From sequence record MK327933.1: a DNA stretch of 64,000 nucleotides; one strand, 5' to 3'. This document shows, in pieces, positions 1 to 61,110 of the stretch (position 1 is the stretch's first letter; each line of letters opens with the position of its first letter). Below the pieces are notes generated by a model. That model searched no databases and was not told where the DNA came from. It saw nothing but the letters and a program-made list of their open reading frames with translations. Origin of the DNA: Escherichia phage vB_EcoM_G2285. A program made the position numbers and the translations under genes.

Positions 1-280
1 AAAGAACAATAACTGTTCCACCATCATACAGCCAATTAACAGCAAAATTAGTTACTGCGGTCGATTTACCTGATTGTCTGCCACCGTCTAAACGAAGTGT
101 ACAGTACTGCTTGAGTACGTCTTCAAATGGTGGGACATAACCGTTCTTACAAATTTCTTCTACTCTAGCATCAGAATGGTGTGTAAAAGCATTCATCAGG
201 GATAGATAAGGTCCAGTTAAAAATGTTCTCATTTTGTTCTCTCTAAATTTGGGCCATTCCGTGGCGCATGAATTGTCCAT
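1..280 (-). CDS. partial CDS (N-terminal part, runs off window start), P-loop NTPase-like
   Basis: Minus-strand reading frame open from ATG at 280..278 (second in-frame ATG 232..230) to position 1; translation MDNSCATEWPKFRENKMRTFLTGPY...RLDGGRQSGKSTAV contains a Walker A-like GKST; absent from ORF track because no stop lies inside the window. Confidence 0.45.
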   Translation of the reverse strand, partial: MDNSCATEWPKFRENKMRTFLTGPYLSLMNAFTHHSDARVEEICKNGYVPPFEDVLKQYCTLRLDGGRQSGKSTAVTNFAVNWLYDGGTVIVL

Positions 281-409
281 TTCTGTATTTACCCATTACC
301 GCACTTGGGCTCGACCTTATTACAGGTTGGCGGGAATCCCTCACAGAATCATGAGGTCCAGCTTGTTCCCATGTTATTTGAATGTAAATAGGCCTAAGTA
401 TAGGCCTTA

Positions 410-988
410 TTAATTACCACGGGCTGCATTAGCAACGGCGTAAGCGTACTGAACATTAGCGTCCTTAAACGTACCTTTAGAGGTATCTATTTCTGCCTTA
501 AAGCCGCCTTTAGCCATAACATCTGCAAATTCTTTACGGAAAGCCATTGCATCAAGACCTTTCCATGTTGATTTATGCTTGGCAAATTCAAGACCGGCGT
601 AGTTGACAGCCTTAGCTAATTTATTATCAATAACCCATTTACCTGCTTTAGGCACAAACTTCGGGCCTTTTTGTTTAGAGAACAGTTTTAAATTCCAGCG
701 ACGAAGGTCACTGTCGGCTTTAACAAAAGCTGCATCTAAGTTACTAGCAACAACATCTTCAATATGAGCAAATTTAAGTCCGTCAACTTCAATATTTAGA
801 TCGTTACGCCAGCGAAGTCCTTCCCAAGCGAAGGCTTTAAAATCAGAAGCCTTTGTAGCTAAGTACCGTTCAATAGGAGCAGTTTTAGGGTCAAAGCCGT
901 TTCCGCCACGATAAGTCCACTCGTCCTTATTAATGCCTTGAGCTTTTCCTGCAAAGGCCTCGGCGATAAATTCTTTATATGTTTTCAT
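410..988 (-). CDS. ipIII: internal protein with N-terminal capsid targeting sequence (IPIII-like, 192 aa)
   Basis: ORF track; starts MKTYKEFIAEA (T4 CTS consensus cleaved by gp21 protease); size close to T4 IPIII; SD AAGGAAAC upstream of ATG 988. Confidence 0.65.
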   Translation of the reverse strand: MKTYKEFIAEAFAGKAQGINKDEWTYRGGNGFDPKTAPIERYLATKASDFKAFAWEGLRWRNDLNIEVDGLKFAHIEDVVASNLDAAFVKADSDLRRWNLKLFSKQKGPKFVPKAGKWVIDNKLAKAVNYAGLEFAKHKSTWKGLDAMAFRKEFADVMAKGGFKAEIDTSKGTFKDANVQYAYAVANAARGN

Positions 989-1019
989 TTTTTGTTTCCT
1001 TGTTTGTTTTGATAGAGTA

Positions 1020-1049
1020 ATTATACCATATTAATACTTAAGCGTAAAC
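1020..1049 (-). promoter_or_regulatory. T4 early-type promoter (GTTTAC -35, 18-nt spacer, TATAAT -10) upstream of ipIII-like gene
   Basis: Minus strand reads GTTTACgcttaagtattaatatggTATAAT; plus-strand gtaaac at 1044..1049 and attata at 1020..1025. Confidence 0.5.
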
Positions 1050-1052
1050 AAT

Positions 1053-1313
1053 TTAAGCTTTACCGCCAGAAATAATTCCGAAGTTGTTAAAATCGTATCC
1101 AATATCGTCAACATCTACTTTAGGACTTGCTACAACATAAGCAATTTCACTACGTTTTGCATAGGTGTTGATTTCTTTACCATCGCCACCTAAGAAAGAA
1201 TACCCATTACGCTTTAATGAGCCAAAGTCTTCCGCATCACCAATGAAAGCTTTAACTTTAAATTTGGGGTCTTTGACATCTGCTTCAATGATAAATTCTT
1301 GATACATTTTCAT
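1053..1313 (-). CDS. ipII: internal protein with capsid targeting sequence (IPII-like, 86 aa)
   Basis: ORF track; N-terminus MKMYQEFIIEA matches CTS pattern; ATG confirmed at 1313..1311. Confidence 0.55.
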   Translation of the reverse strand: MKMYQEFIIEADVKDPKFKVKAFIGDAEDFGSLKRNGYSFLGGDGKEINTYAKRSEIAYVVASPKVDVDDIGYDFNNFGIISGGKA

Positions 1314-1321
1314 TTTTTTCC

Positions 1322-1735
1322 TTAGTAAATTGATTTACCATAGTATTTGTACCAAGTCGGACGTTGAGCAATTTTTTCATCTAAGCGTGCTTGACTTATC
1401 GCAATGGACGCTTCGGACGGGACGTAATTATTACGAAATTCTACAGGAATGTCGGAAATATCCTGGACAGTCGTGTCCTTGATTTTGAAACCACGTTTCA
1501 AGCATTCAGCGATTAGCTCGATTTGACGTAAACGTAAAAATTCGAGTTTGTCGTAAAAGAATGTTACGTGACCTGTGCCTAAGATAAATGTTGGAGGGAT
1601 TTTAAAATCCTTTACACGTTTACCGTTTTGAACATGTTTACGGACTGAACCAAATACGCGTGGTAATTCACGATACTCAGCCATAAGATGTTGGTCGGTC
1701 AGTTCAGAAACAAGTGTTAAATTGATACGGGTCAT
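1322..1735 (-). CDS. denV: endonuclease V, pyrimidine dimer DNA glycosylase (DenV)
   Basis: Translation [35 protein letters not shown] nearly identical to T4 endonuclease V; ORF track start at 1747 is a TTG extension, ATG at 1735 with SD GGAGGAAA. Confidence 0.9.
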
Positions 1736-1793
1736 AATTTCCTCCAAGTAGTTGATGAATGTATAGTATCAAAGTCCTTGGAGGAAGTAAACA

Positions 1794-2075
1794 CTATTTT
1801 TCTGAAGCGCCTGAAATATATTTTTCAAGACGTTGTTTCATTAGCGAGCCGTTCTTAGCGATTTCTTCCGGTTTATCGCACATACGCAACAAGGCTTCAA
1901 GCTTAGCGATATTGCTGGTACGTTCAAATTTGCGAGTATCTATCTTACTAGCAAGTTCAGAAATACGTGCTAATAGACTTTCGGCTTCAACCAAAGCTGC
2001 ACCTAGCTTAGTTGCAAATGTGTCAGTAGCTTCGTTAAGAATAGATTCTGATAAAAATTCACTATATGTTTTCAT
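1794..2075 (-). CDS. internal-protein-like protein with CTS ([10 protein letters not shown]), wedged between denV and e
   Basis: ORF track (1794..2090, TTG extension); in-frame ATG at 2075 gives N-terminus [10 protein letters not shown]; ATG overlaps stop of gene e (ATGA). Confidence 0.6.
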
Positions 2076-2560
2076 ATATACGCTTTCCAAGTTCCTGTTT
2101 TAAATGTTGAGATTACGCGTTTCGCGCGATTAGGTGTCTGACGATACCATTTAGATTGGGCTAGATTTACTGCCGCTTCATCCCAACGTTTCTGTTGAAG
2201 AATACGAAGAGAATTAGTAAAACCGGCGACGCCTGCTACACCCATTTGGAAGACCATATTGACCAATGCACATCGACGAACTGCATCTAAAGAATCGTAT
2301 ACCGGTTTAAGTTTAGCATTACCCAAGATTCCGCGAACGGCTTTATCAACGTCTTCATTAAATAGCTTTTCAGCCTCATCAAGGGTAATTGTACCGTTGC
2401 ATTTACGTCCGATCATTCTGTCAAGTTCAGCTTTAGCTACGGCTAAAGACGGGTTCTTTGTTACTAAATGGCCTATGCCAATCGTCCAAAAGCCTTCAGT
2501 GTCTTTGTATAAAGTCGGTCTAAGACCTTCGTCATTACGAAGCATTTCAAATATATTCAT
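2072..2560 (-). CDS. e: endolysin (T4 lysozyme, gene e)
   Basis: Translation [49 protein letters not shown] is clearly T4 lysozyme; ATG at 2560. Confidence 0.95.
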
Positions 2561-2561
2561 A

Positions 2562-2587
2562 ATACCTCCCACGTTTATAGGAGGTAT
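2562..2587 (-). promoter_or_regulatory. hairpin sequestering the SD of gene e with late-promoter-like TATAAACG in the loop
   Basis: Minus strand ATACCTCC-TATAAACGTG-GGAGGTAT then T-ATG; 8-bp perfect stem; the GGAGGT SD sits in the 3' arm. Confidence 0.55.
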
Positions 2588-2594
2588 TTATTAC

Positions 2595-3053
2595 TTATAG
2601 GAGGGTAGTGAGCACCTTATATAATGATTTGCCCATTACATATTCCCATTGAGAAGGTTTAATTAAAGCGAATGCATCAAATTCAGGAATCTGTCGTCCG
2701 TCTGGGAATGTATGATAGGAATTACAAACACTGTTTCTGAATTGCTCGTGCTCTACAGGGATGGTATATAAGAACAGATGAATATTCTTATTGTCTGAGT
2801 AATGATGTTCACCTAGGTCTTTCAGGAAGGCAGGGTCATACTGTGTAAACCCAGTTTCTTCTTCGCATTCACGAATAGCGGCTTCAATAGGAGATTCGCC
2901 AGGTTCGACACGGCCTTTAGGAATATCCCACCGATGAGCTAATGCACCTTTAGGACGAGAACCAGTTACACGGCCCATGAATAATTCTTTATCTTCGGTA
3001 AGGAAAATAATACCGGCTGATAGTTCTTTCACTTTATTTTTCTTACTCATCAT
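2595..3053 (-). CDS. nudE: Nudix hydrolase (NudE, e.1)
   Basis: Nudix box GRVEPGESPIEAAIRECEEETGF in translation; position directly after e as in T4. Confidence 0.85.
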   Translation of the reverse strand: MMSKKNKVKELSAGIIFLTEDKELFMGRVTGSRPKGALAHRWDIPKGRVEPGESPIEAAIRECEEETGFTQYDPAFLKDLGEHHYSDNKNIHLFLYTIPVEHEQFRNSVCNSYHTFPDGRQIPEFDAFALIKPSQWEYVMGKSLYKVLTTLL

Positions 3054-3279
3054 CTCGGTTCCATGATTTGGCCATTAATTCGGACATAAATTCTTCAATG
3101 CGCGTTTCTTTAGATGGACTTTCACTATCAGATATTTGGACCATATAATCAGAAATAGGTCGGAACATATCCAAGTCGCTTTCTAAATCTTCTTTGATTT
3201 TCTCTTCTGACGTTCCTGTATCATAGGAATACAGATAAGAATCACATGATTCTGATTTAATGTAAATTGCTATACTCAT
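3043..3279 (-). CDS. hypothetical small acidic protein
   Basis: ORF track 3043..3294; likely real start ATG 3279 (MSIAIY) preceded by AGGAA. Confidence 0.45.
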   Translation of the reverse strand: MSIAIYIKSESCDSYLYSYDTGTSEEKIKEDLESDLDMFRPISDYMVQISDSESPSKETRIEEFMSELMAKSWNRDDE

Positions 3280-6651: not shown

Positions 6652-7243
6652 ATTCTCTACATTCCATAATAAATTGCTCAAGGATTAAATTGTTAGTGAA
6701 ATTAGGACTAACAACCATGGTTTCATAAAGCGCATCAATAGCACTTAAAGCATCAACTCTTTTAAGCAAAGGCTTGCCTTCATACATAGTTTCAGAATCG
6801 ATGATTAACGTAAAGTAATATTTTTTATTATCGACTAGAACTTCTGTATCGATATAAAACATATTAGACCTCAGAAGCTTATCTCTAAAACCATAATAAT
6901 CTTCAGAGCGTTCGCTGATATATTCCCATTCAGTGTTTAAACAACAAACAGACCATGTAGGAGCAACGAAATCAGTGAATCTAATATCATGGTCTGCAAC
7001 TAGTTTAGCAATAGCTCCGATATCATGAATCATAATACCTGGGGCTAATAAAGATTTTCTGCTATGGCCGGCCGTTTTCTCGGTGGTCTCATAAGAAGAC
7101 GACCAGTACCATTTACGTCCAGTTGCAACATATCGTAATGAATCAACTAAAGACGTAGGTGGATTTACCTTATCTCGGAACTCTTCGAACATTGAGTCAA
7201 TATCATTATTTTGGTTTCGCATGTTAACTCCTTTATTATCCAA
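6620..7243 (-). CDS. hypothetical protein (207 aa) with ...LEQFIMECRE near C-terminus
   Basis: ORF track; SD AAGGAG before ATG 7243. Confidence 0.5.
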   Translation of the reverse strand: MDNKGVNMRNQNNDIDSMFEEFRDKVNPPTSLVDSLRYVATGRKWYWSSSYETTEKTAGHSRKSLLAPGIMIHDIGAIAKLVADHDIRFTDFVAPTWSVCCLNTEWEYISERSEDYYGFRDKLLRSNMFYIDTEVLVDNKKYYFTLIIDSETMYEGKPLLKRVDALSAIDALYETMVVSPNFTNNLILEQFIMECREYVKANPVHAN

Positions 7244-10175: not shown

Positions 10176-10180
10176 TTGTT

Positions 10181-10222
10181 TTGATAGGACTACTATAACA
10201 TAGTCCTATAGGCTTGTATACC
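10181..10222 (-). promoter_or_regulatory. PeSL-like cassette (inverted repeat ATAGGACTA..TAGTCCTAT, weaker -35)
   Basis: ttgataggactactataacatagtcctat immediately upstream of gene start 10175. Confidence 0.5.
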
Positions 10223-10223
10223 T

Positions 10224-10499
10224 TTATTTCAAATATATTGCGTATTTTTTATAGCCACCAGGCTCGTGTCGAAGACCTTTATCATTCGCAAAACGTTGAA
10301 TGTTATTGAACTGATTTTCATCAAGTTCGGATGTGTCAAATATGAAAAAGTTTCGTTTGTTACCAAGCGTGATATGCGGAGTTAAGTCAATGTTATACAA
10401 ATTAAGAATATCAGCAATAACCTGTTTGGCCGCTTTGTTAATTTTCACACCAGACGATTCTGAGATGAATTCGTTGAAAGTTTTCATTTTAGGTTCCAT
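10224..10499 (-). CDS. internal-protein-like protein with CTS (MKTFNEFISE)
   Basis: ORF track; CTS motif begins at second ATG (10487); hyperplastic position next to 57B. Confidence 0.55.
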   Translation of the reverse strand: MEPKMKTFNEFISESSGVKINKAAKQVIADILNLYNIDLTPHITLGNKRNFFIFDTSELDENQFNNIQRFANDKGLRHEPGGYKKYAIYLK

Positions 10500-10507
10500 T
10501 TGGTTGT

Positions 10508-10550
10508 TTTGATAGGACTACTATAACATAGTCCTATCATGTTGTAAACT
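10508..10550 (-). promoter_or_regulatory. PeSL-like early promoter/stem-loop cassette
   Basis: gataggactactataacatagtcctat plus gtaaac at 10544..10549, overlapping stop of upstream gene. Confidence 0.55.
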
Positions 10551-10857
10551 ATTTTATTCCGCGTGATGCAATTGTGTTCTGTCGTTTAACACCAGTTTGT
10601 TTAAAGTCATGATTGTCGATTTGATCGGTACGAGCAACTCCGAATGATGATTTGATTTTAGCTTTAGATCCTTTAGTTATAGAAATAAACATCTCGGAAG
10701 CCCCTTTCTTAAAGTCCGAAGCGATTACTTCAACACCGTTCTTAGCAAGTGACTTCAGAATTGCATCCGCAAACTCATCGTCAAGACCTACCTGAGTATA
10801 AATAATAAATGTCTTTGGTGCAGCAGCTTCATTGATAAATTCTTTAAATGTTTTCAT
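10549..10857 (-). CDS. internal-protein-like protein with CTS (MKTFKEFINEA)
   Basis: ORF track; ATG 10857; N-terminal CTS motif. Confidence 0.6.
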   Translation of the reverse strand: MKTFKEFINEAAAPKTFIIYTQVGLDDEFADAILKSLAKNGVEVIASDFKKGASEMFISITKGSKAKIKSSFGVARTDQIDNHDFKQTGVKRQNTIASRGIK

Positions 10858-10883
10858 TTTATTTCCTTTAATTTTGTTTTGTT

Positions 10884-10926
10884 TTGATAGGACTACTATA
10901 ACATAGCCCTATAACATTGTAAACTG
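10884..10926 (-). promoter_or_regulatory. PeSL-like early promoter/stem-loop cassette
   Basis: gataggactactataacatagccctat plus gtaaac at 10919..10924. Confidence 0.55.
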
Positions 10927-10937
10927 TTTTGTGAAAA

Positions 10938-37695: not shown

Positions 37696-39319
<1,624 letters not shown>

Positions 39320-39321
39320 TA

Positions 39322-39549
39322 ATGGACGATTTAATTCAAGCTATTAAATCAAACGACCTCGTTGCTACTCGAAAGTTTTTTGAAAGTGCAATGGCAGAAA
39401 AAACGGTTCGTTTGATTGAAGCACGCAAAGCAGAAATCGCTTCTCAATTTTTGATTGAAGGCGAAGAACCTGAAGAAGAAGAGAAAGCTTCGGAAGACGA
39501 CGAAGATGATGACGATGAAGACGAATATGATGATGAGGACGATGAATAA
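39322..39549 (+). CDS. 67: prohead core protein gp67
   Basis: 75 aa with acidic C-terminal tail; synteny. Confidence 0.85.
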
Positions 39550-39974
39550 TGTATCTTATCCCTGAATCTTATGAATTGGTACTCGAAAATGTCGAAGCAC
39601 TTATTCCTGAAGCACAGGGCCGAATCGATGCATTGTCTTCTGCTCTCGATATTGACGATATAAATACTATTATCGAGAACATGCTTGAAACTGAAACGGA
39701 TTTAGCTGTTGCAATGGCTTCCATTATTAATGAAGAACAGTTAAATGAGTTTATCGTTAAACATGTTTCTTCTCGCGGTGAAGTCACTCGCACTAAAGAC
39801 CGTAAAACTCGTGAACGTAACGCGTTCCAAACCACTGGTCTTTCTAAAGCAAAACGTAGACAAATCGCTCGTAAGGTCGTTAAAGCTAAAAAAGCTAACC
39901 CTTCAGGCCAAGTTAAAGGCTTGCGTAAGCGTAAAAAAGCTCTTAAACGTCGTAAAGCATTAGGATTAAGCTAA
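39549..39974 (+). CDS. 68: prohead core protein gp68
   Basis: 141 aa; synteny. Confidence 0.85.
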
Positions 39975-40615
39975 TGAATAAACCCGAGTTACTTATTGAA
40001 ACTTGGGGTCAACCCGGTGAGATTATTGATGGCGTTCCAATGTTGGAATCTCATGATGGAAAAGATTCTGGCTTAAAACCAGGGCTTTATATAGAAGGTA
40101 TTTTTCTTCAGGCAGAGGTTGTTAACCGAAATAAGCGTTTATATCCTAAACGCGTTTTGGAAAAAGCAGTAAGTGACTATATTAAAGAACAAGTCGCAAC
40201 CAAACAAGCCCTTGGAGAATTAAACCATCCACCTCGTGCAAATGTTGACCCCATGCAAGCCGCTATCATTATTGAAGATATGTGGTGGAAAGGAAACGAT
40301 GTATATGGACGTGCTAGAATTATTGAAGGCGACCATGGTCCCGGCGATAAATTAGCTGCTAATATACGAGCTGGTTGGATTCCAGGTGTTTCCTCTCGTG
40401 GTCTTGGTTCTTTAACCGACACCAATAAAGGGTACCGTATCGTGAACGAAGGATTTAAATTAACCGTCGGCGTAGATGCCGTATGGGGACCTTCTGCTCC
40501 AGATGCTTGGGTTACTCCTAAACAAATATCAGAATCAGAGAATTCGGTGGAAATCACCAAAAACAGTGCTGATGAAGCATTTAAAGCTCTCGCAGAGAGT
40601 TTAAAAGCATTATAA
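39974..40615 (+). CDS. 21: prohead core scaffold protein and protease gp21
   Basis: 213 aa; synteny. Confidence 0.9.
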   Translation: MNKPELLIETWGQPGEIIDGVPMLESHDGKDSGLKPGLYIEGIFLQAEVVNRNKRLYPKRVLEKAVSDYIKEQVATKQALGELNHPPRANVDPMQAAIIIEDMWWKGNDVYGRARIIEGDHGPGDKLAANIRAGWIPGVSSRGLGSLTDTNKGYRIVNEGFKLTVGVDAVWGPSAPDAWVTPKQISESENSVEITKNSADEAFKALAESLKAL

Positions 40616-40618
40616 ATA
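40611..40618 (+). promoter_or_regulatory. late promoter TATAAATA for gene 22
   Basis: Exact TATAAATA overlapping gene 21 stop. Confidence 0.6.
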
Positions 40619-40648
40619 ATAATGTAATCTAAACCACAGGACACTAAA

Positions 40649-41461
40649 ATGATCAAAGAACAACTTTTGAAAGAAGCTCAGAACATCGAGACTTCAGTTG
40701 CTCTTAATAGTGTTTTCGAATCAGTAGAACTGTCTCCGGACGTTAAAGCTAATTTCAGCACTGTATTCGAAGCCACCGTTAAGCAGGAAGCAGTCAAACT
40801 GGCTGAATCTCATATCAAAGCCATCGCCGAAAAAGCCGAAGAAGAAGTTGAAAAGGCTAAAGAAGATGCTGAAGAGAAAGCTGATAAAAAATTGGCTGAA
40901 CAAGCTTCTAAATTCCTAGACCATCTTGCAAAAGAATGGCTCGCAGAAAACCAAATCGCAGTTGATAAAGGCATTAAAGCTGATTTGTTCGAATCCATGC
41001 TTGGTGGTCTGAAAGAACTGTTTGTTGAACATAACGTTGTTGTTCCAGAAGAATCTGTAGATGTTGTAGCAGAAATGGAAGAAGAGCTGGCCGAACATAA
41101 AGAAGAAACCGCTCGTTTGTTCGAAGAAGTTACCAAACGTGATGCATATATCAATTACGTTCAGCGTGAAACCGCTATTAATGAAAGCGTAAAAGACCTG
41201 ACTGAATCTCAGAAAGAAAAAGTTATTGGCCTGGTTGAAGGTATGGATTATTCTGACGCATTTGGTACTAAGTTAACTGCTATTGTAGAAATGGTTAAAG
41301 GTTCTACTAAAGAAGAAGCCGCTATTACCGAAAGTATAAATACAGTTGACAATGACGCTGCCGGTCTTAATTTTGTTGCCGAAGCAGTTGACACTACCAC
41401 AACTCAGGTAGAACAGAATTCTAATGTAAGTTTATATGCGAAAGTCGCATCTCGTTTCTAA
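40649..41461 (+). CDS. 22: prohead core scaffold protein gp22
   Basis: 270 aa acidic coiled-coil protein; synteny. Confidence 0.9.
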   Translation: MIKEQLLKEAQNIETSVALNSVFESVELSPDVKANFSTVFEATVKQEAVKLAESHIKAIAEKAEEEVEKAKEDAEEKADKKLAEQASKFLDHLAKEWLAENQIAVDKGIKADLFESMLGGLKELFVEHNVVVPEESVDVVAEMEEELAEHKEETARLFEEVTKRDAYINYVQRETAINESVKDLTESQKEKVIGLVEGMDYSDAFGTKLTAIVEMVKGSTKEEAAITESINTVDNDAAGLNFVAEAVDTTTTQVEQNSNVSLYAKVASRF

Positions 41462-60901: not shown

Positions 60902-61110
60902 TAATCCACAATCGGAAGCAAAGTACGATAAACTTCAAAATTAGGGCCTTTTTCGTACCCATTAACGTTATCTACGAAAACCCGATACGAATTTTCATTA
61001 GGAAAATCTAATATAATCTGAGAGCAAGAGGTGGAAACATCTCCACCATCCTTCTTAGCTACAATAACTGTTTCTAAATAAGCTTTCATTATAAACCTGT
61101 CTGGGACCAC
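60901..61110 (-). CDS. hypothetical protein (69 aa)
   Basis: ORF track. Confidence 0.45.
   Translation of the reverse strand: MVPDRFIMKAYLETVIVAKKDGGDVSTSCSQIILDFPNENSYRVFVDNVNGYEKGPNFEVYRTLLPIVD

Follow-up and report, generated by a model that had tools for sequence, protein, structure and literature searches.

Probable internal-protein cassettes around denV in a known variable locus of a Mosigvirus genome

Results

Genes of the e...vs.8 locus

The window (the whole 64,000-nt stretch of DNA that was analysed) belonged to a Mosigvirus (RB69 group) and shared 97.7% identity with phage moha. Three ORFs starting with a T4-type capsid targeting sequence (CTS), which an initial annotation had reported around denV, were confirmed on the minus strand (coordinates include the stop codon): Ip3 (410-988; 192 aa, start MKTYKEFIAEA), ipY (1053-1313; 86 aa, start MKMYQEFIIEA), and ipX (1794-2075; 93 aa, Ip5 family by similarity). 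They share the strand with denV (1322-1735; 137 aa), which encodes endonuclease V, a pyrimidine-dimer glycosylase (Pfam PF03013; 90% identity to T4 DenV), and with the lysozyme gene e (2072-2560; 162 aa; Pfam PF00959; 81% identity to T4 e). The vs.8 gene (1-232, minus strand), which starts at 232 and runs off the window, is the conserved right-hand border of this variable locus. The order ip-ip-denV-ip-e is correct as read on the plus strand, and the order of transcription is e, ip, denV, ip, ip. Several GenBank/RefSeq records have the same order with these genes annotated as internal head/virion proteins; this arrangement is standard among Mosigvirus phages and not peculiar to the one studied here.

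The count of five CTS proteins in the window was borne out by two scans. A six-frame scan with the motif M[KR]x[YF]x[ED][FYL][ILVM] gave exactly 5 matches, each at an ORF start (988, 1313, 2075, 10857, and 10487), compared with a mean of 0.095 and a maximum of 1 in 200 mononucleotide shuffles. The looser scan (MK[TMSA][YFW], ORF ≥50 aa) added one ORF, at 61089, that was not a CTS ORF. All five CTS ORFs fell into PHROG families named internal head/virion protein; none matched Pfam or NCBIfam, and a PDB sequence search gave nothing significant for Ip3, ipX, or ipY. The three ORFs of the denV locus were intact and 88-99% conserved over hundreds of phage records.

The other two CTS genes form a second locus on the minus strand, next to 57B. 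The first is an Ip7 ortholog (10549-10857; 102 aa) that adjoins 57B, with 93% identity to T2 Ip7 and a match to phrog_2667 (E 3.3e-39); the other (10224-10487; 87 aa) matched phrog_7673, "internal head protein" (E 2e-48). Both are bracketed by three promoter/stem-loop copies (AGGACTATGTTATAGTAGTCCTATCAAAACAA; 10858-10937, 10488-10548, and 10176-10223 on the minus strand, spanning 10176-10937), with folds of -15 to -17.8 kcal/mol (z -3.6 to -5.5). The three denV-locus genes and both 57B-locus genes all lie in variable IP loci, where IP genes are expected.

Relationships of the three proteins

Ip3 was a full-length ortholog of T4 IPIII (92% identity over 192 aa, E 2e-135) and matched phrog_5341 (E 1e-117). 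DNA homology of its cassette to T4 extended over window 393-1001 at 90.7% identity, compared with 71% in nudE-e and 78% in denV, the flanking genes; this difference indicates lateral exchange of the cassette.

ipX was 90% identical to RB69 ORF127 and matched phrog_3499 (E 1.5e-45). Its identity to T2 Ip5 was 46% over residues 1-84 (E 1e-21), so that the likeness reaches the mature domain. At <60% identity, 258 phage records matched ipX; among the matches listed, Ip5 genes lay at 42-51%, and several of the matching genes listed were annotated ip5 or ipV. Judged by these similarities, ipX is an Ip5-family member. An AF2 model of ipX showed three helices (pLDDT 70.6), with no Foldseek match in the PDB.

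ipY was 96.5% identical to RB69 ORF125 and matched phrog_2667 over residues 1-84 (E 3.7e-21), a family shared with the Ip7 ORF at 10549-10857. Because pairwise identity to the window Ip7 was only ~30%, membership in the Ip7 family holds at the family level only, and by this profile match ipY is a remote paralog of Ip7. An AlphaFold2 model of ipY (pLDDT 48.6) was discarded.

The protein alignment with T4 IPs that had been proposed as a check showed ipX and ipY matching over the leader only: BLASTP hits to T4 IPI and IPII covered the first 11-23 residues, with E ≥0.009 (18-sequence database). No homolog of known function was found for either protein. A search of 5.8 billion proteins returned close phage relatives only (5 clusters for ipX and 12 for ipY), and no deeper profiles could therefore be built for the two.

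Overlaps, promoters, and stem-loops

The ATGA overlap between e and ipX was present as claimed: the stop of e and the start of ipX share 2075-2072 on the minus strand, where e ends ...TGG AAA GCG TAT ATA TGA and the ip gene starts ATG AAA ACA TAT. In the annotations of RB69, phiE142, phi25-307, ESh15, moskry, and PHB12, the two genes overlap by the same 4 nt. No promoter of its own was seen for ipX, and its translation is probably coupled to that of e. A stem-loop that sequesters the e ribosome-binding site (2561-2588, minus strand; dG -15.6 kcal/mol, z -4.9) has its homolog in the leader of T4 e; the octamers in it that resemble late promoters (AATAAATA and TATAAACG) were imperfect. Behind denV, ipY starts 8 nt past the denV stop, and its SD overlaps that stop.

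A PeSL-like (promoter-early/stem-loop) element lies directly upstream of denV (1736-1793, minus strand), with a T4-early-type promoter (GTTTAC ... TACTAT) in a 10-bp stem-loop (dG -17.8 kcal/mol, z -3.8), and T4 denV is preceded by a homologous element. Upstream of Ip3 (989-1052, minus strand), an early-type promoter (GTTTAC-N17-TATAAT with TG) was combined with a CTATCAAAACAA leader; this promoter was clear (10/12 match, TG), and its stem was AT-rich and weak (fold z -1.25). The combination of early promoter and stem-loop between cassettes was found before denV and in the three 57B-locus copies, and no PeSL-like element was found ahead of ipX or ipY. The CTATCAAAACAA 12-mer had 4 exact copies, all on the minus strand and directly upstream of gene starts in the two IP loci. 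Three precede CTS ip ORFs (988, 10857, and 10487), and the fourth (10176-10187) precedes the gene downstream of the fifth IP. With ≤1 mismatch there were 6 matches, against 0.74 expected.

The recognisable promoters of the e...vs.8 locus were early-type; no perfect late promoter (TATAAATA) occurred on the minus strand of 1-3200, and an Rfam search of 1-3200 found nothing. A terminator-like hairpin (390-407, minus strand; dG -11.6 kcal/mol, z -3.6) ends the e-to-Ip3 transcription unit. It is followed by a junction region (233-389, minus strand) that holds an ip-leader fragment (about 377-390, TATTTACATTCAAA) and then an N-terminal remnant of vs.8 (344-246; GTG start, broken frame). A candidate small RNA in 225-415 was rejected, its fold being no better than that of shuffles (z -0.35).

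Targeting and processing signals

In T4, CTS residues 4 and 7 matter for targeting and residues 8 and 10 for processing (PMC9026906). All three leaders of the denV locus carry Y4, F7, I or L at position 8, and E10, with aromatic residues at both 4 and 7. A gp21 propeptide is expected to comprise 10-19 residues and to end in (I/L)-x-E, and such a motif was present in each sequence: I-A-E10 in Ip3, I-I-E10 in ipY, and L-N-E15 in ipX. The ipX leader also carries L-S-E10; E10 is not conserved across the ipX family, whereas L13-N14-E15 is invariant, and T2 Ip5 has I-T-E there. The predicted propeptides are MKTYKEFIAE for Ip3 (predicted mature form 182 aa, pI 9.6), MKMYQEFIIE for ipY (76 aa, pI 5.2), and residues 1-15 for ipX, cut after L13-N14-E15 (78 aa, pI 8.8, all-helical).

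The head-processing machinery lies at 39322-41458. It includes gene 21 (39974-40606, plus strand; 88% identity to T4 gp21), the prohead protease that would remove CTS propeptides, and gene 22 (40649-41458, plus strand; 77% identity to T4 gp22), the scaffolding core protein. By tblastn, gp67 was 62% identical to T4 (N-terminal 48/80 residues only) and gp68 was 81% identical. gp20 was also present, and the window encodes both protease and scaffolding core. T4 IPs co-purify with gp22 (PMC9026906). Virion proteomics had been suggested as a further check; no published proteome covering the three proteins was found in the literature.

Gene order among relatives

The initial annotation had noted that the gene order departs from T4 and had proposed rearrangement or replacement of internal-protein cassettes. 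The T4 order is e-ipIII-ipII-denV-vs.8, that of RB69 is e-127-denV-125-124c-123c-vs.8, and that of T2 is e-ipIV-vs.8, without denV. Only Ip3 has a T4 ortholog, and it lies on the other side of denV. Orthology of each gene to T4 IPI, IPII, or IPIII in conserved order, which would have contradicted the proposal, was not found, and the proposal therefore survives. The genes lie in e...vs.8, one of two IP loci known to be variable, and this accounts for the departure from the T4 order.

Replacement and rearrangement were directly visible among relatives. In a survey of the denV neighbourhood in 41 IMG/VR loci (L005-L045), 27 had at least one CTS ORF adjoining denV between e and vs.8. The 31 loci with an e...denV...vs.8 frame carried 0-2 CTS ORFs ahead of denV and 0-3 behind, and Ip3 was found on either side of denV. 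Close relatives showed ipY-[124c]-[Ip3]-[Ip2]-[123c] in six presence/absence combinations. Identity between the window and RB69 (97.9%) breaks off with the last CTS codon, at window 960, and the end of the Ip3 cassette lies at 377-393; both boundaries recur in the relatives compared. The recurring breakpoint at 960 may represent a single ancestral event in four genomes and not four independent ones.

The order could also have changed because denV moved and the ip genes did not, denV being a cassette with its own promoter/stem-loop that was inserted elsewhere in the ip array. The PeSL-like element ahead of denV in both the window and T4 agrees with this, as do the lack of denV at the T2 e...vs.8 locus and the position of denV, always inside the ip array in the IMG/VR loci examined. 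However, it is the Ip3 cassette (90.7%) and not denV (78%) that has an anomalous DNA identity to T4, and Ip5- and Ip7-family genes also occur at the 57B locus, so that ip cassettes demonstrably move. We therefore regard a move of denV in place of the ip genes as unlikely. Movement of denV and movement of ip cassettes are not mutually exclusive.

Discussion

The three ORFs are very likely IP cassettes in a known variable locus. Cassettes would be gained, lost, and moved via recombination at short shared sequences, the proposed exchange sites being the early promoter/stem-loop elements, the 5′ leader, and the very DNA that encodes the CTS. According to the citations of Repoila 1994 in PMC2839356 and PMC3012670, the shuffling of cassettes at both IP loci was described long ago. 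The biology has already been described (Repoila 1994; Arbiol 2010; Silas 2025), and the window holds no new family or architecture.

From the leaders and the processing genes, we infer the following course. Each IP would be made with an N-terminal CTS of 10-15 residues, which would direct it to the scaffolding core (gp22/gp67/gp68) of the prohead. There gp21 would cut after (I/L)-x-E, at E10 in Ip3 and ipY and most likely at E15 in ipX. The mature IP would remain in the head, enter the host with the DNA, and most likely neutralise a first-line nuclease with which the host attacks hypermodified phage DNA (type IV restriction). The IP products are thus probably packed in the capsid and injected with the DNA, their role probably being to block host restriction enzymes.

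The strength of this reading differs among the proteins. T4 Ip3 blocks the two-gene GmrS1/GmrSD2 type IV restriction enzyme of E. coli ECOR17 (PMC12373910; PMC9391042), and ipIII is required on ECOR17 and, when its product is made inside the cell, needs no CTS for activity (PMC9391042). By analogy, an anti-restriction role is likely for the window Ip3; for ipX and ipY the same role is conceivable at somewhat less than even chance. Ip1, Ip2, and Ip3 are inhibitors of GmrSD enzymes, a different one for each protein (PMC12373910), and the CTS protein Bas37_0260 inhibits McrBC (bioRxiv 10.1101/2025.11.20.689424). All four function-assigned IPs inhibit type IV restriction enzymes, which makes each uncharacterised family a candidate for a new inhibitor/nuclease pair. 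On comparison, Bas37_0260 showed no homology to any window IP. The GmrSD variants tested with ip4-ip10 of T4-like phages were not reproducibly inhibited (PMC12373910, section 10, supplementary figure 9). The only Ip5 traced in a functional screen was bas37_0261, for which no phenotype was reported, and a name-based literature search for Ip5/Ip7 returned inositol-phosphate papers only. Mosigvirus DNA carries arabinosylated 5-hydroxycytosine and not glucosyl-hmC (PMC13326640), and targets derived from T4 may therefore not transfer.

The small proteins might instead be structural or DNA-associated head components that neutralise charge or aid core assembly, without a part in anti-defence. T4 IPs are abundant (~360 copies each), and in IPIII mutants head assembly slows to about half and polyheads build up, but on laboratory hosts T4 can do without its IPs (PMC9026906). 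The predicted charge is divided: a basic pI (8.8-9.7) is predicted for mature Ip3, ipX, and Ip7 and for the 87-aa protein, whereas that of ipY is acidic by prediction (5.2). Moreover, the four IPs with an assigned function are all type IV restriction inhibitors (PMC12373910; 10.1101/2025.11.20.689424), and the presence or absence of ip genes varies even between near-identical phages, which argues against a needed structural role. A purely structural function is therefore rather improbable. It is still less probable that any of the ORFs has ceased to encode a packaged protein, having a CTS-like N-terminus by descent and acting as an early cytoplasmic protein only, or decaying: the early-type promoters of the locus, the activity of Ip3 without CTS in the host (PMC9391042), the degenerate leader of the RB69 copy of ipX (MKTYMNFYQNLSLNE), and the annotation of ipY from Met3 in several relatives (owing to a shorter A-tract ahead of the first ATG there) would fit, but all three window leaders keep the targeting and cleavage residues, the ORFs are intact and conserved in hundreds of phage records, and the conserved L-N-E of ipX suggests that processing is maintained.

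Internal proteins are the first phage proteins in the host cytoplasm. The window illustrates clearly the array of Mosigvirus in its minimal form (Ip5-like, Ip7-like, and Ip3). It carries an Ip3 cassette nearly identical to that of T4 in a genus with a chemically different DNA modification, which raises the question of whether GmrSD-type enzymes also attack arabinosylated DNA. Tentatively, ipX and ipY might be injected inhibitors of further type IV enzymes (GmrSD, McrBC, or other) that recognise Mosigvirus DNA with its arabinosylated 5-hydroxycytosine; the conserved e-ipX fusion might then be the core counter-defence of the genus and the variable array after denV its adaptive part.

Comparison with known systems

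The window Ip3 resembles T4 IPIII in sequence (92% identity), in its equal length, and in the 10-residue CTS pattern. T4 IPIII sits between e and ipII, whereas the window Ip3 lies downstream of denV and ipY and adjoins vs.8; the phage carrying T4 IPIII has glucosyl-hmC DNA, and the Mosigvirus genus has arabinosylated 5-hydroxycytosine DNA (PMC13326640). With T4 IPI* (an inhibitor of GmrSD-CT596) and IPII (an inhibitor of GmrSD/BrxU-ECOR21), the window IPs have the leader in common, and presumably also the delivery route; the similarity of the three denV-locus ORFs to them ends within the first ~11-17 residues. The window lacks T4 IPI and IPII genes, whereas its close relatives PHB12 and phi25-307 carry Ip2 after Ip3.

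ipX agrees with Ip5 of T2, RB32, and Bas37 in length class and in predicted cleavage after residue 15. The ip5 genes of T2 and Bas37 lie in the other IP locus, adjoining 57B, with their own promoter element, whereas ipX lies directly behind e with an ATGA overlap and without its own promoter. ipY shares the phrog_2667 profile with Ip7 (the T2/RB69 ORF156 family), with ~30% identity to the window Ip7, but at 86 aa it is shorter than that protein (102 aa), has an acidic rather than a basic predicted pI, and lies in the denV locus.

As in the two hyperplastic T-even IP loci described previously (Repoila et al. 1994; Comeau et al. 2007; Arbiol et al. 2010, PMC2839356), the CTS arrays of the window are confined to e...vs.8 and 57B...tRNA.4. 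Early-type promoters and AT-rich stem-loops between cassettes, with exchange at conserved short sequences, are likewise shared with PeSL-like T-even loci (PMC2839356). Nothing essential differs from the PeSL-bearing T-even loci; in the window, ipX and ipY are without an element and are transcriptionally fused to e and denV, respectively.

Gene order and identity of the internal protein genes

Positions 1-3100 formed one run of genes, all on the minus strand: nudE (2595-3053), lysozyme e (2072-2560), a 93-aa ORF (ipX, 1794-2075), denV (1322-1735), an 86-aa ORF (ipY, 1053-1313), a 192-aa ORF (Ip3, 410-988; MKTYKEFIAE) and vs.8 (from 232 downward). The N-termini of ipX, ipY and Ip3 carried the capsid targeting sequence (CTS) that the initial annotation had read there, and the end of e overlapped the beginning of ipX in the ATGA (stop and start codon) that it had described, an overlap annotated in all Mosigvirus relatives compared. 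The total of five CTS proteins that it had proposed was also recovered: a six-frame motif scan of the 64 kb returned five CTS-like ORF starts (shuffled sequence: mean 0.095, never more than one), the other two being 10549-10857 and 10224-10487 (both minus strand).

Along its full extent, the region shared 97.7% identity with Escherichia phage moha (Mosigvirus), and many other RB69-group phages reached 96-97%; 68 records covered at least 80% of it. Identical genes in identical order were annotated in moha and in RefSeq phiE142, where they appear as glycoside hydrolase (e), internal head protein, endonuclease V, internal head protein and internal virion protein.

All five CTS ORFs (5/5) fell in PHROG families of internal head or internal virion proteins. 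In pairwise comparisons with the T4 internal proteins (IPs), only 410-988 matched at full length, as the ortholog of IPIII (92% over 192 aa); the likeness of ipX and ipY to IPI and IPII was confined to the leader. These two corresponded instead to RB69 ORF127 (ipX, 90%) and ORF125 (ipY, 96.5%). A tblastn search of all phage records placed ipX in the Ip5 family (46% to T2 Ip5, E = 1e-21), which carries the ip5 annotation in T2, RB32 and VR26. ORF 10549-10857 was Ip7 (93% to T2 Ip7), and ipY was a remote Ip7 paralog (common PHROG, approximately 30% pairwise identity). Copies of ipX with 95-99% identity occurred in 232 phage records, and copies of ipY with at least 90% in 153. For the IPs, sequence searches of Pfam, NCBIfam and the PDB gave no matches. 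AlphaFold-type models were poor for ipY (pLDDT 48.6) and ipX (pLDDT 70.6; no Foldseek match among structures), because the protein families are too shallow.

Cassette exchange at the e...vs.8 locus

The order differed from that of T4 (e-ipIII-ipII-denV-vs.8, with ipI adjoining 57B), as had been suspected. In 41 IMG/VR contigs (L005-L045), we assigned labels to the ORFs surrounding denV. The frame nudE-e-[0-2 CTS ORFs]-denV-[0-3 CTS ORFs]-vs.8 was found in 31 of the 41, and at least one CTS ORF adjoined denV in 27 of these 31. Depending on the lineage, Ip3 lay upstream or downstream of denV, and Ip7-like genes were likewise found on either side. Among very close relatives, the e-denV slot was occupied by an Ip5-like gene in every phage compared, and the slot after denV held present/absent combinations of ipY-[124c]-[Ip3]-[Ip2]-[123c] (124c and 123c being RB69 ORFs): ipY-Ip3 in the window, moha and phiE142; ipY-Ip3-Ip2 in PHB12; ipY-124c-Ip3-123c in ESh15; ipY-Ip3-123c in Av-05; ipY-124c-123c in moskry and RB69 (e-127-denV-125-124c-123c-vs.8); and all five cassettes in phi25-307. 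T2 (LC348380.1, 60500-65500) had ipIV alone between e and vs.8, with ip5-ip7 adjoining 57B; since denV is absent there, it behaves as a dispensable cassette of the ip array. In the T2 record, e also lies within an unusual 972-bp CDS labelled "nudE."

This varying content, together with discrete breakpoints, supported the rearrangement or replacement of ip cassettes that had been suggested. Identity to RB69 was 97.9% from 3100 down to 960 and resumed at 330. Position 960 is the tenth codon of Ip3/124c, the exact end of the CTS-coding DNA. The boundary at 960 recurred in phi25-307, ESh15 and moskry, that at 377 in phi25-307, ESh15 and PHB12, that at 330 in phi25-307, ESh15 and moskry, and that at 390 in PHB12. 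As they may go back to shared ancestry, we count these recurrences as one well-resolved event rather than four. In PHB12, a repeated leader fragment, TATTTACATTCAAA, flanked the 425-bp Ip2 cassette, and the window kept one copy of it after the Ip3 terminator; in phi25-307, the 123c cassette lay between two copies of the vs.8 5′ region that had diverged from each other. The Ip3 cassette (393-1001) was 90.7% identical to T4 DNA, above the identity of its flanks (nudE-e, 71%; denV, 78%), a signature that points to lateral exchange between genera.

The first 33 codons of T4 vs.8 were kept at approximately 97% DNA identity (344-246, minus strand), exceeding the 88% of the surrounding segment. This remnant had a GTG start and a frame broken by a deletion of approximately 8 nt; the start of Mosigvirus vs.8 is therefore the equivalent of T4 Met41 (position 232). 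The remnant region (233-370) matched nothing in Rfam and did not fold unusually; it represents either a conserved noncoding element or a gene truncated recently.

Regulatory elements

Upstream of denV we observed a T4-early-type promoter (GTTTAC...TACTAT) within a 10-bp stem-loop (-17.8 kcal/mol, z = -3.8), a design shared with the homologous position before denV in T4. Ip3 was preceded by a strong early-type promoter (GTTTAC-N17-TATAAT with TG) and then by the leader CTATCAAAACAA. This 12-mer had four exact copies in the window, each immediately 5′ of an IP-locus gene start (three before CTS-bearing ip ORFs, the fourth before the gene following the fifth IP), and six matches at one mismatch or fewer, vs. 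0.74 expected. The 57B locus contained three promoter/stem-loop copies (z = -3.6 to -5.5). These nearly identical elements (AGGACTATGTTATAGTAGTCCTATCAAAACAA), in which a stem-loop of 10-12 bp overlaps an early-promoter -10 region, bracketed both ip genes there (10176-10223, 10488-10548 and 10858-10937, minus strand), the third preceding a tRNA.4-like membrane-protein gene. These are the PeSL-like elements (promoter plus stem-loop) that Arbiol et al. (PMC2839356) credited to Repoila et al. 1994 and proposed to drive plasticity in "the two small IP loci."

No PeSL-like element was found upstream of ipX or ipY. The ipY start lies 8 nt past denV, and its Shine-Dalgarno sequence (SD) overlaps the denV stop. 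As both genes lack an element of their own, and as ipX overlaps e and ipY abuts denV, their expression must presumably come from the transcripts of e and denV. On the minus strand of the locus there was a single terminator-like hairpin (390-407), just past Ip3, and in the e leader a hairpin like that of T4 still covered the ribosome-binding site. No perfect late promoter was found on that strand, so expression timing is not readable from the sequence. An Rfam search of the locus gave no match, and the RNA fold of the intergenic 225-415 was no better than chance.

The A-tract between the SD (AAGGA) and the ATG of ipY (1314-1321, minus strand) was 7 nt long in the window and PHB12, and 5 nt in moha, RB69, phi25-307 and moskry, where the SD spacing was only 3 nt. 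Several annotations take Met3 as the start of ipY, probably because of the shorter A-tract and changed spacing; that choice would cost the protein its first two CTS residues.

Targeting and cleavage

For packaging of T4 IPIII, its ten N-terminal residues are sufficient; CTS residues 4 and 7 serve targeting and 8 and 10 cleavage by gp21 (the prohead protease), and IP propeptides are 10-19 residues long (PMC9026906, which attributes the CTS to Mullaney and Black 1996). Y4, F7, I/L8 and E10 were present in Ip3, ipX and ipY. Within the Ip5-like family, E10 was missing in RB69 and one metagenomic variant, but L13-N14-E15 was invariant (I-T-E at 13-15 in T2); from this pattern we infer that gp21 would cleave ipX after E15. 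The leader of the RB69 ipX copy (6923-7204) was degenerate (MKTYMNFYQNLSLNE), with E6, I/L8 and E10 lost and L-N-E 13-15 retained, which suggests that gp21 really cuts proteins of this family after residue 15 and that they can dispense with the first motif of cleavage type. Predicted mature products were 182 aa (20.2 kDa, pI 9.6) for Ip3, 78 aa (8.6 kDa, pI 8.8) for ipX and 76 aa (8.2 kDa, pI 5.2) for ipY.

The window also encoded gp21 (88% to T4), gp22, gp67, gp68 and gp20. Portal gene 20 (37696-39231, plus strand) contained, near its 3′ end, a 55-bp tandem duplication (39152-39261, two copies, 98% identical). As its length is not divisible by 3, it shifted the frame and gp20 ended early, with the conserved acidic C-terminus replaced by GYSSDV; the T4-like end was still readable in another frame (39185-39322). 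The duplication, which the nearest phages in the database (99.7% identical) do not have, could have arisen by mutation or in the assembly.

Comparison with known systems

Each of the T4 proteins Ip1, Ip2 and Ip3 inhibits its own GmrSD type IV restriction enzyme and does not cross-protect; for Ip3 the enzyme is the two-gene GmrS1/GmrSD2 system of ECOR17 (PMC12373910; PMC9391042). ip4-ip10 showed no reproducible inhibition of the GmrSD panel used there (PMC12373910). A fourth CTS protein, Bas37_0260, inhibits McrBC (bioRxiv 10.1101/2025.11.20.689424); compared with all window IPs, it was rejected as a homolog, and its neighbour bas37_0261 was Ip5. By analogy, ipX and ipY would most likely be injected inhibitors of other modification-dependent nucleases. 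The DNA of RB69, the type phage of Mosigvirus, contains arabinosylated 5-hydroxycytosine, not glucosyl-hmC (PMC13326640); the window, which belongs to this genus, keeps a near-T4 Ip3.

All features map onto biology already described: the CTS, the two variable IP loci with promoter/stem-loop elements and "more than 30 known variants" (Repoila 1994, as cited in PMC2839356 and PMC3012670), and the action of IPs in anti-restriction (PMC12373910). The exact architecture is also public and annotated.
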